Positions 41,221 to 51,918 of a stretch of DNA of 64,000 nucleotides are shown here, one piece after another; position 1 is the stretch's first letter, and every line of letters starts with the position of its first letter. The stretch is taken from the NCBI GenBank assembly GCA_934454215.1, contig CAKSGG010000004.1, positions 16,885-80,884 of the forward strand, read 5' to 3'. The stretch comes from an uncultured Clostridia bacterium. GTDB taxonomy: Bacteria > Bacillota > Clostridia > UBA1381. The translations under genes and the position numbers were made by a program. Under the pieces are notes generated by a model. That model saw only the letters and a list, made by a program, of their open reading frames with translations, did not search any database and was not told the DNA's origin.

Positions 41221-41252
41221 CATATATGAATTCAAAAAAACAGCTCCACATA

Positions 41253-41281
41253 TTGCAGAATAGAATCAGGTATGATAAAAT
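41253..41281 (+). promoter_or_regulatory. Sigma-A promoter in leader copy 1
   Basis: TTGCAG-17 nt-(TGa)TAAAAT, i.e. an extended -10. Confidence 0.6.
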
Positions 41282-41325
41282 AAGCGTGTAAAAATGGTAA
41301 GAAGATAACACAGGTAAGAAGTTAA

Positions 41326-41382
41326 GCAGGTTTAAGAGTTTCTATCCTACGGGATAGGTGCGTACTTAAACCTGCCTTTTTT
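41326..41382 (+). terminator. Leader terminator 1 (copy 1)
   Basis: GCAGGTTTAAG...CTTAAACCTGC with an inner CTATCC/GGATAG hairpin, followed by CTTTTTT. Confidence 0.7.
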
Positions 41383-41417
41383 CATTTTTACGGAAAACAA
41401 AATATTAAAGCGAAAAC

Positions 41418-41467
41418 AAACACATGTAATTAACCTGTTGCGGGAATTTGCGTGTGTTTTTATTTTT
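41418..41467 (+). terminator. Leader terminator 2 (copy 1)
   Basis: AAACACA..TGTGTTT long imperfect hairpin followed by TTTTATTTTT. Confidence 0.55.
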
Positions 41468-41572
41468 GCGAAAATTAAGGAGGAGAGTGCCAAAAAGGAA
41501 CTTAAAAAAATAATTTAAGGAGGTTTGAACGATTGAGAAAAACAAAAAAATGTTATCAAGAGGTGGTTTATT

Positions 41573-44500
41573 ATGCGTGAATTGGCGGAACTATCACCAA
41601 TAACTTATTTCGACCAAGCTAATGCACTCCGTTTGAACTGTTATGCAGATACTTTTGTATATCACAAAGCAAGCGGAAAAGAGCGGAATTTGGTTGCAAT
41701 GCGTTTTGGAGGTTACCCGGAGCAGGTAAGAGCAATGGCAGATGTTCTGCGAAAGGGAGCGGGAATTGAAACAATTATTGAAAATCACAAAATTATTTTG
41801 CACGCACAACATAAGGCATACAAACGCAGCATAACTCATGATGGAATTTATGCGGAGGGAACTATGCTTGCACTCGATGATGAAAACGGAGAAATGTCAG
41901 ATGAGGAACAGATGGAGGTTGAAAGCCCCCAAGCAAAACGAAAAACATATATCTTTTGTAATGAAGGAGATACCGATTCGTTATATGCAGAATTGGATAA
42001 AAAGACTTCCATACCTCTTATCCCAGAGTTTAAGGAATACATTCTTGAAGAATGTTTAAAGAAAAAAATTCTGGTACAACTTGAAGTCTTGTCTGCCAGC
42101 GTTCATTTTGACGCATATATGTTTGAAGTGCGGAATGATGAAAAAGAGATTGAGCAAATCGTAAATGACGGTCTTAAAACAGGTCGCATAGCTATTCCGA
42201 ATGCTGTGAAGCATAGTGGTTTTGACGATATTAAAACCGTTTCGCAGTATTTGAATATGTACGGAATTACGATTGCCAACAGAATAAGGAAATCATTTAA
42301 TCCGCTTTTTGATCCGTCAACAGAGCATATTTGCGACGGATTAAAACGGATTAATGGTTACTTAAAAAAGAATGTGGGATACACTTTATATCCGGCGCAG
42401 CTTGCGGTTGCAGAGGCAATAAAACGGAGACTTGATAAAGCAAAGGTCGGAGTTATAGTTGCTGAGTGCGGCAGCGGTAAGACAAAAATAGGAGCGTCTG
42501 CTCTGGCAGCACATCAGAACGGAAAAAGGGCTTTTAATGTTGTGCTTTGCCCTTCGCACGTGACAAAAAAGTGGGTGCGTGAGATTGAAGAAACTCTGCC
42601 GAATACGAAAGCCGCAGTGGTGTATAACCTGGCGGATATAGACAGAGTTGTGGACGAACACAAAAAAGGAAATGAGTCTACATATATCATTCTTTCAAAG
42701 GAAAGAGCGAGAGACGGGTATATGTGGCAGCCTTCGGTAGTCTATTCACGAATTAAAAAGGCATATATTTGCCCACGATGCGGAGAAGTTATTAAAATGG
42801 ATTTGAAAGATGATGGCACGAACTATAAAGTTGCTGCCGATCAATTCTTTTTCAGAAAGCAAAATACGCAAAATCATAAGTGTGAGAATTGCGGCGAATT
42901 GCTTTGGAGTGCAATAAATCCAAATGACAAGAGATTAAGCCATAATAAGTGGGTAAAAATCGGAAATTACGGTTTTGTTTATCGACCTTTTGCAGTAAGA
43001 CATTTAGAGAAAACCAGGAATTTGAGAGTGCTTGATAAGCTTAAAGAGATTATATCACACCCCAATATGGTGTTTATAGCGAAAGGTGCTTATGTAAGAT
43101 ATTCAATGAGCGATTATATTTCCGAGCGGTTAAAGCAAATAGACGGAGTTATTCTTGATGAGTTGCATCAGTTTAAGGGTGATAGTGGACAGGGCGATGC
43201 TATGGAAACCTTAGTAGGCTGCAGCAAAAAAGTTATAGGAATGACAGCGACACTGATTAACGGCTATTCAAGCGGTTTGTTTTATTTGCTTTATCGTATT
43301 GTTCCTTATTTAATGAAAATAGATAATAAGGATTACGAATCACCTAATTCATTTAACAACGAATACGGTGTAACCGAAATGACCTATGAGCTTGATGAAG
43401 GTGACTACAATGCGAACAGTCGGAGCAAAAAAACGCTTTTGCAAACGAAGCAAAAACCAGGGGTATCTCCACTTGTCTATTCGAGATTTTTGATTGATTG
43501 TGCGGTATTTCTTTCCCTCAACGATATGGGAAAGCATTTGCCTGATTATGAAGAGATTCCGATAGAGCTTGATTTAAGACCGGATATCTTAAAGGAATAT
43601 AAAAGAATTGAATCGGGCTTCAGAAGTGTTATGAAACAGCATAATGCAGCATCACGAAAACTGATGTCAAGTTTTATGAGCCTTATGACTACATATCCGG
43701 ACCAGCCTTATAATGCTGAGCCGATATATTATCCCAGAAGTGATCAAGCGGTAATTGAGCCGAAGGATTTATCAAGTATTGATGAATTACACGAAAAGGA
43801 TATTGCGGTGTTGGATATAGTTGAAAAAAAGGTCAAAAACGGTGAACGGGTTCTTATTTACACAAGCTGGGTAAAGATAGACACACAGGAAAAGTTGCTT
43901 AAATTGCTTGAAGAAAAAGGCTACAGAACTGTTGTGCTTGAACAGAGGGTAAAGCCGGAAAAGCGTGAGGAATGGGTGGAAAAACGATTGGAGAACGGTA
44001 TTGATGTTCTGATAACAAATCCATCTTTGGTGGAAACGGGATTGGACTTAAATGCGTTTACGACACTCATTTATTACAATATCGGATATAACCTGTTTAC
44101 ATTCAGGCAAAGTTCAAGACGCTCGTGGAGAATTAACCAGACGGCTCCAAGAATAGAAGTATATATCCTCTACTATAAGGGAGTTATGCAGGCAAGAGCC
44201 ATAAAACTTATGGCGTCAAAGCTTGCGGCTGCAACTTTAGTGGAGGGGAATTTCTCGGACGAAGGACTGGCAGCAATGAGCGATTGCAATGATATGACAT
44301 CACAGCTCGCAAGAGAGCTTACAAAAGGCATTCGTGATGAAGTCGAAGATGTTGCCTCTATGTTTAAGAAAATGGCAATTATCAAAGATGAAAACGAAGC
44401 AGTGGAAGATATGTCGGATTATATCATATCTGATGATACAACGGCAGAAAACCAAATACACAATGTTATATCCATAAGTGAAAAAATTGAACGCGCAAGG

Positions 44501-44605
44501 CTTATTGCAATGAAATTAAACAGTGAAACGGCGAAAAAACAGGTTAAGGAAAACAATTACAATGCAGGAGGTCAATTAAGTTTGTTTGACCTCATAGCGA
44601 GTTAA
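41573..44605 (+). CDS. SNF2/SF2-family helicase with an inserted zinc ribbon
   Basis: Motif I 'AECGSGKTKIG', motif II 'LDELHQFKG', motif III 'GMTATLINGY', motif VI 'QSSRRSWRINQ'. 'CPRCGE...CENCGE' lies between motifs I and II. Confidence 0.85.
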   Translation: MRELAELSPITYFDQANALRLNCYADTFVYHKASGKERNLVAMRFGGYPEQVRAMADVLRKGAGIETIIENHKIILHAQHKAYKRSITHDGIYAEGTMLALDDENGEMSDEEQMEVESPQAKRKTYIFCNEGDTDSLYAELDKKTSIPLIPEFKEYILEECLKKKILVQLEVLSASVHFDAYMFEVRNDEKEIEQIVNDGLKTGRIAIPNAVKHSGFDDIKTVSQYLNMYGITIANRIRKSFNPLFDPSTEHICDGLKRINGYLKKNVGYTLYPAQLAVAEAIKRRLDKAKVGVIVAECGSGKTKIGASALAAHQNGKRAFNVVLCPSHVTKKWVREIEETLPNTKAAVVYNLADIDRVVDEHKKGNESTYIILSKERARDGYMWQPSVVYSRIKKAYICPRCGEVIKMDLKDDGTNYKVAADQFFFRKQNTQNHKCENCGELLWSAINPNDKRLSHNKWVKIGNYGFVYRPFAVRHLEKTRNLRVLDKLKEIISHPNMVFIAKGAYVRYSMSDYISERLKQIDGVILDELHQFKGDSGQGDAMETLVGCSKKVIGMTATLINGYSSGLFYLLYRIVPYLMKIDNKDYESPNSFNNEYGVTEMTYELDEGDYNANSRSKKTLLQTKQKPGVSPLVYSRFLIDCAVFLSLNDMGKHLPDYEEIPIELDLRPDILKEYKRIESGFRSVMKQHNAASRKLMSSFMSLMTTYPDQPYNAEPIYYPRSDQAVIEPKDLSSIDELHEKDIAVLDIVEKKVKNGERVLIYTSWVKIDTQEKLLKLLEEKGYRTVVLEQRVKPEKREEWVEKRLENGIDVLITNPSLVETGLDLNAFTTLIYYNIGYNLFTFRQSSRRSWRINQTAPRIEVYILYYKGVMQARAIKLMASKLAAATLVEGNFSDEGLAAMSDCNDMTSQLARELTKGIRDEVEDVASMFKKMAIIKDENEAVEDMSDYIISDDTTAENQIHNVISISEKIERARLIAMKLNSETAKKQVKENNYNAGGQLSLFDLIAS

Positions 44606-44616
44606 GGAGGAAATGT

Positions 44617-51335: not shown

Positions 51336-51536
51336 ATGAAGCCTATTATTGAAATATCGGGAAATCTTGGCTATAAGCTTGAGCGTGGCTATCGTGCATT
51401 CATTTGCAAGGAAGAAGGCGATACGCTTTTTACTTCGCAGGTGATTGACATACGAAATGAAACAGCAGGCGGCATTGAAATCGAAACACAAAATACGATT
51501 TACAAATTAACATATACCGCCGAAAACGCTGCATAA
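51336..51536 (+). CDS. Hypothetical small protein
   Basis: AAGGAGG SD. 66 aa. Ends in -AA. Confidence 0.5.
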   Translation: MKPIIEISGNLGYKLERGYRAFICKEEGDTLFTSQVIDIRNETAGGIEIETQNTIYKLTYTAENAA

Positions 51537-51552
51537 ACACTAAGCATTAAAA

Positions 51553-51592
51553 TCCGGTACTCTCTGAATAAGAGGGTGCCGGAGATTTTTTT
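51553..51592 (+). terminator. Intrinsic terminator ending the first operon
   Basis: TCCGGTACTCTC..GAGGGTGCCGGA (two G-U pairs) followed by T7. Confidence 0.75.
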
Positions 51593-51674
51593 GCCTAAAT
51601 AAGCATTTAATAAACAATCTCGAACTGTACTGCCCCGAAAAAAATGAATTCAAACAAAAAAACAACTCCACATA

Positions 51675-51703
51675 TTGCAGAATAAAATCAGGTATGATAA
51701 AAT
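51675..51703 (+). promoter_or_regulatory. Sigma-A promoter in leader copy 2
   Basis: TTGCAG-17 nt-(TGa)TAAAAT. Confidence 0.6.
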
Positions 51704-51747
51704 AAGCGTGTAAAAATGGTAAGAAGATAACACAGGTAAGAAGTTAA

Positions 51748-51804
51748 GCAGGTTTAAGAGTTTCTATCCTACGGGATAGGTGCGCACTTAAACCTGCCTT
51801 TTTT
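51748..51804 (+). terminator. Leader terminator 1 (copy 2)
   Basis: Same hairpin and T-tract as copy 1, with one loop substitution. Confidence 0.7.
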
Positions 51805-51839
51805 CATTTTTACGGAAAACAAAATATTAAAGTGAAAAC

Positions 51840-51890
51840 AAACACATGTGATTACCCTGTTGCGGGAACTTGCGTGTGTTTTTTGTTTTT
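51840..51890 (+). terminator. Leader terminator 2 (copy 2)
   Basis: Same hairpin. The substitutions relative to copy 1 preserve base pairing. Confidence 0.55.
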
Positions 51891-51918
51891 GCAAAAAATC
51901 TAAGGAGGAGAATAAAAA

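Follow-up and report, generated by a model that had tools for sequence, protein, structure and literature searches.

A duplicated leader RNA with tandem repeats precedes two operons of a Clostridia conjugative element and may mediate antitermination

Introduction

Lambda employs the N protein together with nutL and nutR, and HK022 carries putL and putR; in both cases two early operons each have an RNA element close to their start. The trp and hut leaders of Bacillus, which are governed by TRAP and HutP, respectively, contain 3-nt repeats as well as overlapping terminator and antiterminator helices. Here we describe a leader that occurs twice in a 64,000-nucleotide stretch of DNA from an uncultured Clostridia bacterium (GTDB lineage Bacteria; Bacillota; Clostridia; UBA1381), which corresponds to positions 16,885 to 80,884 of the forward strand of contig CAKSGG010000004.1 (NCBI GenBank assembly GCA_934454215.1) and is referred to as the window. 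One copy of the leader heads an operon that encodes an SNF2-type helicase and the other heads an operon that begins with the gene for a sigma-like protein, both of them within a conjugative element.

Related problems of gene control have been studied in other conjugative systems. The conAn2 RNA is ~380 nt long and lies after the conAn1 gene and before the conjugation operon (PMC8191782), and canT of Tn916 is a cis-acting RNA of ~450 nt that is present in a single copy, upstream of terminators T1-T3 of that type of element (PMC11658703). In plasmids of the pLS20 family, the same regulatory sequence, termed EGeRS, is found before several establishment operons, and its copies cluster within a plasmid (PMC8708921). 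Sequences are counted as members if over 60% of their nucleotides are identical to EGeRS1 or EGeRS2. EGeRS1 is 420-750 bp in length, GC-rich and highly structured, and it blocks read-through without containing a constitutive promoter, whereas EGeRS2 contains a strong sigma-A promoter and operators with 7-bp dual motifs that are bound by ribbon-helix-helix (RHH) proteins and are mostly positioned upstream of the -35 element (PMC8708921).

The leader in the window can be compared to each of these systems. The likeness to lambda nut and HK022 put lies in two short RNA elements, in terminators that would be passed by a modified polymerase and in element-specific recognition. However, our leader displays single-stranded 13-nt repeats within a domain that is closed by a helix (P1) instead of a boxA/boxB hairpin or a two-stem put fold, its terminator is positioned before the first gene, its host belongs to the Clostridia, and no sequence or Rfam relationship connects it to the lambda and HK022 elements. 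With the TRAP and HutP systems it shares single-stranded leader repeats, at which a multi-site RNA-binding protein would decide the outcome at a downstream intrinsic terminator, but the repeats are 13 nt long, number two to four and are not accompanied by a competing helix. The conAn and canT systems resemble it as cis-acting leader RNAs of Firmicutes conjugative elements that enable intrinsic terminators to be passed, the terminators doubling as insulators; here, in contrast, a domain of only ~105 nt begins at +1, is present twice and precedes operons of the DNA-metabolism or establishment type rather than transfer genes. The closest conceptual match is provided by EGeRS, where, as in the window, one leader stands before several establishment-type operons. 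The leader nevertheless lacks sequence similarity to these elements, as blastn against 72,556 plasmids returned no match at E 0.01, and it differs from EGeRS2 in that its repeats have a period of 15-17 nt and are part of the transcript, where an RNA helix encloses them.

Results

The leader is a direct repeat that contains tandem 13-nt motifs

A repeat search located the two copies at 41233-41474 and 51655-51896, where they form direct repeats of 242 nt with 95% identity and a start-to-start distance of 10422. Pairwise alignment of the copies reveals a stretch of ~147 nt with one change, and the flanks are unrelated. The direct repeat had been claimed in a preliminary description of this DNA and is borne out by these data; the parts that were listed for it (promoter, two hairpins with U tracts and the Shine-Dalgarno (SD) sequence AAGGAGGAG) are all found in both copies, and the second hairpin is kept despite the substitutions between them. 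A 37-nt core of the leader occurs exactly twice in the window, as compared to 0 expected in shuffles, and neither nhmmer profile nor covariance model (CM) searches detected a third copy in the 64-kb window. The folding energies of copies 1 and 2 are lower than those of dinucleotide shuffles (z = -5.4 and -4.9, respectively), and the structured domain of copy 2 is 99.1% identical to that of copy 1.

Copy 1, which like the other window features described below is on the + strand, has a predicted promoter at 41253-41281 that consists of a -35 element TTGCAG (41253-41258), a 17-bp spacer and a -10 element TAAAAT (41276-41281). The TG of an extended -10 element is present at 41273-41274, and the sequence predicts that transcription starts at ~G41288. 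Both the minimum free energy (MFE) fold and the CM alignment pair the 5' strand of helix P1, GUAAAAAUG (41287-41297), with its 3' strand, CAUUUUUACGG (41382-41392). Put differently, the predicted 5' end of the transcript, GUAAAAAUG (41288-41296), is complementary to CAUUUUUAC (41383-41391), which lies just past the first U tract. Two single-stranded tandem repeats, GGTAAGAAGATAA (41296-41308) and GGTAAGAAGTTAA (41313-41325), are located between P1 and P2. Hairpin 1 (41326-41376) is formed by P2 (41326-41336 with 41366-41376) and includes P3, a CUAUCC/GGAUAG pairing (41341-41347 with 41352-41358), as well as an internal loop with a conserved GUGCG; it is followed by a U tract at 41377-41382. 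Further downstream are the second hairpin, the intrinsic terminator T2 (41418-41467, with a stem at 41418-41459 and a U tract that extends to ~41467), and the SD sequence AAGGAGGAG (41477-41485).

Copy 2 has the same parts in the same order. Its predicted promoter is at 51675-51703 (-35 element 51675-51680, -10 element 51698-51703; offset +10422), and its structured domain occupies 51709-51814, with the P1 strands at 51709-51719 and 51804-51814, the repeats at 51718-51730 and 51735-51747, and hairpin 1 at 51748-51798. The fold and the CM alignment place T2 with its U tract at 51840-51890, and the SD sequence AAGGAGGAG at 51902-51910 is followed by the ATG (51919) of the gene for the sigma-region-2-like protein. 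The segment that the preliminary description had regarded as ~45 nt of unstructured RNA instead holds the two 13-nt tandem repeats, which have the form GGTAAGAAG(A/T)TAA. These repeats and the 5'-closing helix P1 are the most informative features of the leader, and both had been overlooked.

Duplication of the leader is conserved in related elements

The vWA protein was used to fetch 80 related loci (denoted by L-numbers) from metagenome-assembled genomes (MAGs) of Clostridia, and nhmmer and CM searches of MAGs and metagenomes yielded a family set of 58 leaders, 49 of which are distinct. A pattern scan of metagenomes produced 50 loci and added 29 true leaders, and an IMG/VR contig carries one partial leader. 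The leader profile matches relatives whose vWA protein is at least 44% identical, and wherever both sites are on the contig a locus contains two leaders, which precede the SNF2 gene and the sigma-like gene, respectively. The layout that had been described for the window, in which the copies head two operons, is thereby kept in every relative with both sites readable, and the genes 5' of copy 1 in relatives are unrelated cargo. The concern that the repeat might be an unrelated remnant is not borne out, as there are two copies only in the window and the duplication is syntenic in relatives.

Distant elements, in which the vWA protein is 36-41% identical, are not matched by the leader profile; self-BLAST of these elements reveals a direct repeat of 100-280 nt at the same two sites. 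Their leaders contain, in order, TTtACA, a 17-bp spacer, TGnTAcAAT, GUAUUUC, the repeats and a GC-rich hairpin, followed in the 3' part by a GAAAUAC-like segment that is complementary to the 5' end, a strong terminator and an SD sequence. The repeats in this clade comprise two to four units of about UAGGGCGGAGUAAGU with a 15-16 nt period. The same architecture is found before the SNF2 operon of a Subdoligranulum variabile plasmid, where P1 is formed by GUACUU/AAGUAC. A duplicated leader of this architecture is a stable trait of the whole element group.

Within an element, the structured domains of the two copies are 87-99% identical (75% in L113), as compared to ~70% between elements, and the identity of the linker and terminator ranges from 31 to 91%. 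Strong likeness of the domain within an element is expected if both copies are recognized by a shared, element-specific trans-acting reader, and gene conversion may contribute to it as well.

Some relatives contain additional sequences. An insert of ~110 nt separates the promoter from the conserved RNA in both copies of L014 (2290-2460 and 18480-18660) and contains CGGAG-type motifs that resemble the distant-clade repeats, such that two kinds of repeat are present in one leader; the promoter module alone recurs in this locus at 14565-14614 and 16602-16663. In L013, an insertion of ~170 nt (6806-7010) is located between the tandem repeats and hairpin 1, and the repeat module and the hairpin module are therefore separable. 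A drum RNA (Rfam RF02958, 79.9 bits) is present at 16287-16402 (+) in L025, ~1 kb 5' of leader copy 2.

The leader is an undescribed RNA family whose sense strand folds

To analyze the fold, a covariance model was built from seven leaders and the 58 matches were aligned to it. This model was used in place of RNAalifold on plain MAFFT alignments, which under-predicted the structure and left stems out of register. In the CM alignment, 92.7% of the cells are standard pairs, as compared to 44-52% when the partners are slid by 1-3 columns, and double changes occur in 36 of the 43 pairs. The covariation score is 0.393 versus 0.04-0.08 in the slid controls, and no shuffle attains the observed values. 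Every helix (P1, P2, P2b, P3 and T2) adds to the covariation signal. Specifically, P1 has double changes in 8 of its 11 pairs, pairing in helices 2-5 reaches 77-97% and double changes are numerous there, and T2 (helix 6) has double changes in 10 of 12 pairs. P1 is constructed from different complementary sequences in other clades (GUAUUUC/GAAAUAC and GUACUU/AAGUAC), and the sequences of P2 and T2 visibly differ between elements even in the plain MAFFT alignment. The alignment contains 249 G.U pairs versus 41 A.C pairs; it is therefore the sense strand that folds, as expected of a transcript.

Covariance and Rfam searches with homologues, which had been suggested in the preliminary description, thus yielded a covarying family that has no Rfam match. 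At the Rfam 15 gathering threshold there were 0 matches in the window and no leader match in six related loci, and at a relaxed threshold (E up to 10) copy 1 produced sub-threshold chance matches only. A blastn search of phages with the leader returned nothing useful. The leader is an undescribed RNA family, backed by covariation.

The repeats have element-specific cores and are displayed within P1

In the window the repeat motif is confined to the two leaders; when possible trans targets were sought in the remainder of the window, neither the motif nor its complement was matched above chance level. Leaders contain 2-4 repeat units. The core of the repeat is GCAG, GAAG, GAC, TGTAG (UGUAG) or TAAAG (UAAAG) in the main clade, and GGGCGGAG, GGUAGGAG or GGUUUG in the distant elements. 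Both units of one leader almost always share a core, and the cores differ between elements. Unit number can vary between the copies of one locus, as L044 has two full units and one degenerate unit in copy 1 (1505-1667) and three plus one in copy 2 (14769-14948).

Three features of the repeats favour their recognition as RNA over their recognition as duplex DNA. The repeats are always enclosed by P1, they are positioned ~115 nt from the promoter in both copies of L014, and in L064 and L079 a small (~20-nt) hairpin is inserted between two repeats; in L079 a U:A pair of this hairpin in copy 1 is replaced by C:G in copy 2, a compensatory change. Conservation that begins at the predicted +1 was also counted toward RNA recognition.

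Two other approaches to the repeats were discarded. They can be read as a mini-ORF (AUG GUA AGC AGU UAA), but this reading frame is without an SD sequence and is not conserved in the distant clade. A comparison of L023 and L025, aimed at finding the specificity factor, was abandoned because their proteins are too diverged (~75% identity), although their repeat classes differ.

Palindromes are also present in leaders of the distant clade. Perfect or near-perfect palindromes, e.g. CTTGCGGTAACCGCAAG, adjoin the -35 element in both copies of L028 (1686-1702 and 13155-13171), and equivalent palindromes are found at the same sites of both leader copies in L044, L046 and L048. They resemble the operator of a dimeric DNA-binding regulator and are separate from the transcribed repeats.

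The leaders combine a conserved predicted promoter with at least one terminator

Promoter features were tabulated for 43 leaders, with a sigma-A promoter defined as TTGnnn at -35, a 16-18 bp spacer and TAnnnT at -10, all at a conserved position. The -10 element of the predicted sigma-A promoter is TAAAAT, TATAAT or TACAAT in 38 of them, the spacer is 17 bp in 35, a TG extension is present in 18, and the distance to the first repeat is in most cases 11 nt. The positions of the hexamers are kept while the sequence around them is variable, and conservation begins at the predicted +1. An antisense promoter inside the leader was considered and rejected, as only A/T-rich chance matches that are not conserved were found.

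Hairpin 2 is an intrinsic terminator, defined as a G+C-containing hairpin with a U tract directly behind it on the transcribed strand, in both window copies and in almost all relatives. It is absent in copy 1 of L018 and L020, where hairpin 1 with its U tract (T1) serves as the terminator. A U tract follows hairpin 1 in 39 of the 48 distinct leaders and is absent in the L086 lineage of the main clade (9/48) and the whole distant clade, both of which rely on T2 only. The two terminators noted in the preliminary description are therefore present in the window copies but do not hold as a rule for the family, in which at least one intrinsic terminator is always located between the structured domain and the SD sequence. 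Hairpin 1 is primarily a conserved structured domain. The SD sequence lies 10-25 nt past the terminator (~60 nt in a few distant-clade copies), and expression of the operon therefore depends on read-through. The earlier argument that a strong promoter followed by a terminator implies antitermination remains sound.

To see how read-through might be controlled, 13 representatives were folded after truncation in the T2 loop. No antiterminator helix that competes with the T2 5' arm was found, and the linker and the T2 5' arm are unpaired in all 13. A factor that acts on the polymerase or the RNA is therefore needed, and a riboswitch or classical attenuator is unlikely. The ligand-sensing leader that had been offered as one possibility is disfavoured by the same result, which argues for factor-dependent control.

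An S1-domain protein is the best candidate for the factor

The candidate trans factor is a 293-aa protein with three tandem S1 (OB-fold) domains, encoded at 3618-4499 (+) of the window. The profile of its gene family matches ribosomal protein S1 (E = 1e-20), and an AlphaFold2 (AF2) model of the protein (pLDDT 87) contains three tandem S1 barrels that Foldseek matches to bS1 (E = 2e-14). This paralogue of ribosomal protein S1 is listed in some sources under the wrong name '30S ribosomal protein S1'. The source contigs of its homologues are equal in size to those of vWA homologues, and the S1 gene belongs to the core genes of the element family. In the compact loci L137 and L138 the order is T4SS (type IV secretion system) genes, type IV coupling protein (T4CP), DUF5697, S1 gene, leader copy 1 and SNF2, with ~20 nt between the S1 stop codon and the leader. 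The S1 gene is also positioned 5' of copy 1 in L010, L108, L014, L121 and the distant-clade L037, and an S1 homologue is present in L063. L010 and L108 are likewise compact, and in them the gene directly adjoins the leader. The proximity of a multi-domain RNA binder to tandem single-stranded sites is suggestive, and the S1-domain protein is the best candidate for the factor that would read the leader repeats.

The sigma-like protein had been put forward as an element-encoded factor. Its gene (51919-52371, +) encodes 150 aa that contain a sigma region-2 domain only, with a weak match to extracytoplasmic function (ECF) sigma factors and a Foldseek match to the SigE N-domain (probability 0.99). 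The C-terminal ~40 residues are unconserved and predicted to be disordered, and there is no region-4 helix-turn-helix (HTH). In the distant clade the JAB gene directly follows copy 2 and there is no sigma-like gene at the head of operon 2; it is placed elsewhere in distant relatives (L064 5863-6147, L079 18577-18828). The sigma-like protein is thus not an obligatory partner of the leader.

Discussion

From the repeat and its family, the two-copy layout, the promoter, the structure and strand of the RNA, the terminator and the lack of an alternative helix, we infer a leader RNA that acts in cis and whose repeats would be bound by a sequence-specific factor; this factor would allow the terminator to be read through and would thereby co-regulate both operons, a proposal that we judge about equally likely to be right or wrong. 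Each leader would be transcribed from its own housekeeping-type promoter, and the first ~105 nt would fold into a closed domain in which the 5' end pairs with the segment 3' of hairpin 1 (P1), such that two single-stranded 13-nt G-rich repeats are displayed beside the compound hairpin. At least one unconditional intrinsic terminator before the SD sequence would halt transcription by default. A single-strand RNA-binding factor, for which the element's own three-S1-domain protein (3618-4499) is the candidate, would read the repeats on the nascent leader and enable the polymerase to pass the terminator or terminators, in a mode closer to antitermination of the N/nut, put, conAn or canT type than to a structural switch. 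As the leader and its repeat 'address' are common to the two operons, these would be switched together as one regulon. The terminators would also insulate the operons from read-through of the upstream conjugation and cargo genes.

A more specific form of this proposal, which is tentative and in our view unlikely, is that the leader represents a new class of factor-dependent antitermination in conjugative elements of Clostridia, in which the two to four repeats are read one per domain by the three-S1 paralogue, repeat and protein co-evolve, and the protein acts on the element's own two operons only. As the transfer block ends with the S1 gene, the arrangement would in this form of the proposal couple the DNA-metabolism and establishment regulon to expression of the conjugation genes.

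Several points weigh against antitermination at the repeats. Tandem direct repeats beside a strong promoter are also typical of a DNA operator, and the dual direct heptamers to which the RHH repressor Reg576 of p576 binds are positioned upstream of the -35 element and just after the start site (PMC8708921). No strong terminators were seen within the window operons, so processivity is not demanded of the polymerase. In the window the S1 gene is separated from copy 1 by 37 kb, with cargo inserted between them, and a role on transferred single-stranded DNA (ssDNA) would fit its place at the end of the transfer-gene block just as well. The structural evidence is also affected, as a CM-based alignment is biased toward the modelled structure and P1 is little varied within the main clade.

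The main rival, which we consider unlikely, treats the repeats as a DNA operator for an element repressor or roadblock. The strong promoters would then be shut in the resident state and would burst after transfer (zygotic induction), as in the EGeRS2/Reg576 establishment regulon of plasmid p576, and the RNA helices and terminators would be separate features that function as a 5' stabiliser and an insulator. Such an operator would be well placed, as the repeats are at ~+9 to +38, just past the start site, in most leaders, and their identity in both copies of an element together with their divergence between elements is what operator-repressor co-evolution predicts. The genes for SSB, methyltransferase, helicase and Rad52 resemble establishment genes, and regulatory sequences that recur ahead of several establishment operons, with direct-repeat operators partly past the start site, are known from other plasmids (PMC8708921). 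The distant-clade palindromes at the -35 element in both copies suggest that DNA-level control probably exists too. However, the 15-17-bp period of the repeats sets successive sites on opposite faces of the DNA helix, and their ~115-nt distance from the promoter in both copies of L014 is difficult to reconcile with an operator. The ~20-nt hairpin between the repeats of L064 and L079, with its compensatory change between copies, maintains their proximity in RNA and not in DNA, and the repeats are always inside the covarying P1 helix. Moreover, no RHH- or HTH-type repressor adjoins the leaders among the ORFs scanned.

The remaining explanations are less probable still. That there is no regulated antitermination is decidedly unlikely; in this case the unit would be a constitutive stable small RNA (sRNA) of ~95 or ~180 nt that serves, for example, as a sponge or platform for an RNA-binding protein, or a 5' stabiliser joined to a leaky attenuator that sets low, fixed expression. 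It does form a complete promoter-RNA-terminator gene, its 5' end is paired from +1, as is typical of RNase-J/5'-end protection, its tandem single-stranded protein-binding motifs resemble those of sponge RNAs, and the operons contain no internal terminators that would require processivity. Yet the unit is always directly before an SD sequence and a long operon, in the same orientation and at two syntenic sites, with no stand-alone copies elsewhere in the 64 kb or in the loci of relatives. There is also no promoter between the terminator and the SD sequence, so the operons need read-through, and mere leakage past the strong terminators would be a poor means of expressing ten-gene operons. The preliminary description had further suggested that the hairpins act in ssDNA after transfer, as an ssDNA promoter or an ssi site of a leading region; the analysis considered a promoter of the Frpo type and a single-strand initiation or origin site. 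The setting would suit this idea: T4CP, RepA_N and recombinases mark the window as a conjugative element, relatives have T4SS genes upstream, the regulated genes are similar to leading-region cargo, and repeated structured elements precede leading-region genes in other plasmids (PMC11541004, PMC8708921). We nevertheless regard it as very improbable, as an ssDNA promoter would need a fold of the template strand, whereas the G.U to A.C ratio (249 vs 41) identifies a sense-strand fold; the stems are variable and lack conserved -35/-10-like boxes, an ordinary double-strand promoter is located upstream with conservation from its predicted +1, and a U-tract terminator and an SD sequence follow. We give similarly little credence to a riboswitch, a classical attenuator or a member of the conAn2/canT family. 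These also have a structured leader followed by a terminator, and the conjugative context is shared (PMC8191782, PMC11658703), but the linker and T2 5' arm are unpaired in all representatives with no alternative helix, and neither the window nor six loci gave an Rfam match for the leader at gathering thresholds. With respect to conAn2 and canT, the ~105-nt A/U-rich domain that starts at +1 contrasts with ~380 nt containing a GC-rich box and with ~450 nt, respectively, and the plasmid collection revealed no nucleotide similarity. The conAn type, which had been named as a model for the leader, is set apart by description, as conAn2 spans ~300-380 nt with a GC-rich box and SL1, whereas the RNA here is ~105 nt, has a GC content of 0.28-0.45, has no preceding gene in its transcript and stands before non-transfer operons; canT is set apart, likewise by description, by its size, copy number and element type.

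In gut Clostridia, conjugative elements are among the main vehicles of horizontal gene movement, and they time the expression of their replication, recombination and anti-defence-type genes. The leader is a widely conserved control point in these elements, as it is found in dozens of MAGs, in metagenomes and on at least one plasmid, and it offers a readable specificity code in the repeat core, a default-off design and a candidate factor. It is a fresh variation on a known type of control. If the link to the S1 paralogue is true, a new protein family and RNA architecture would join the few bacterial antitermination systems. Should the repeats instead prove to be a DNA operator, the family still marks the regulon boundaries and promoters of these elements and provides a covariance model for their annotation.

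Organization of the element and additional observations

All genes in the window are on the + strand. Positions 1-7107 (+) encode a T4SS coupling protein, RepA_N, DUF5697, a resolvase, YpsA and a tyrosine recombinase; the presence of the coupling protein, RepA_N and recombinases at the start of the window therefore identifies a conjugative element. Between the S1 gene and leader copy 1 are ~33 kb of co-oriented cargo (8000-41220, +), which includes two Ser/Thr kinases, PP2C, FHA proteins and a 1510-aa EssC-like FtsK ATPase, as well as SLH and Cu_amine_oxidN1 surface proteins, a subtilase and a 1509-aa C11 peptidase. Operon 1 (41573-51536, +) encodes the SNF2-type helicase, a beta-clamp, DUF3268, DUF1281_C, MoxR, SSB, vWA and small ORFs, and ends at a strong terminator (51553-51583, +). 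Operon 2 (51919-63911, +, to the window end) encodes the sigma2-like protein, JAB, ThiF/E1, a DUF6094 methyltransferase, E2 and Rad52, and further genes within it specify an SMC-like ATPase, a primase, DUF6744 and others. No strong terminators were seen inside the window operons, and searches of PHROGs and NCBIfam gave no hint of a function for the small unknown ORFs.

Copy 1 heads the SNF2 operon, as had been described, but it is not immediately before the SNF2 start, from which it is separated by ~90 nt with two mini-ORFs. Mini-ORF 1 (41487-41513, +) has 8 codons and lies behind the SD sequence at 41477-41485, and mini-ORF 2 (41533-41580, +) has 15 codons and its own second SD sequence, and overlaps the SNF2 ATG at 41573. 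At the same spot, L007, L017, L011, L006 and L108 contain a 3-codon ORF, ATG AGG GCT TAA or a close variant.

Within operon 1, the gap between the SSB and vWA genes contains a strong, GC-rich hairpin of 13-14 bp without a proper U tract (48523-48553, +), and 10 main-clade relatives have a hairpin of differing sequence at the same spot. It may be a site of mRNA processing or stability, or a weak terminator within the operon. Finally, in L135 (12004-13584) and L136 (4281-5861) a Lactamase_B protein with a weak match to the anti-Pycsar protein Apyc1 lies in the cargo slot that separates the S1 gene from the SNF2 operon, which fits an anti-defence or establishment role for this part of the element.

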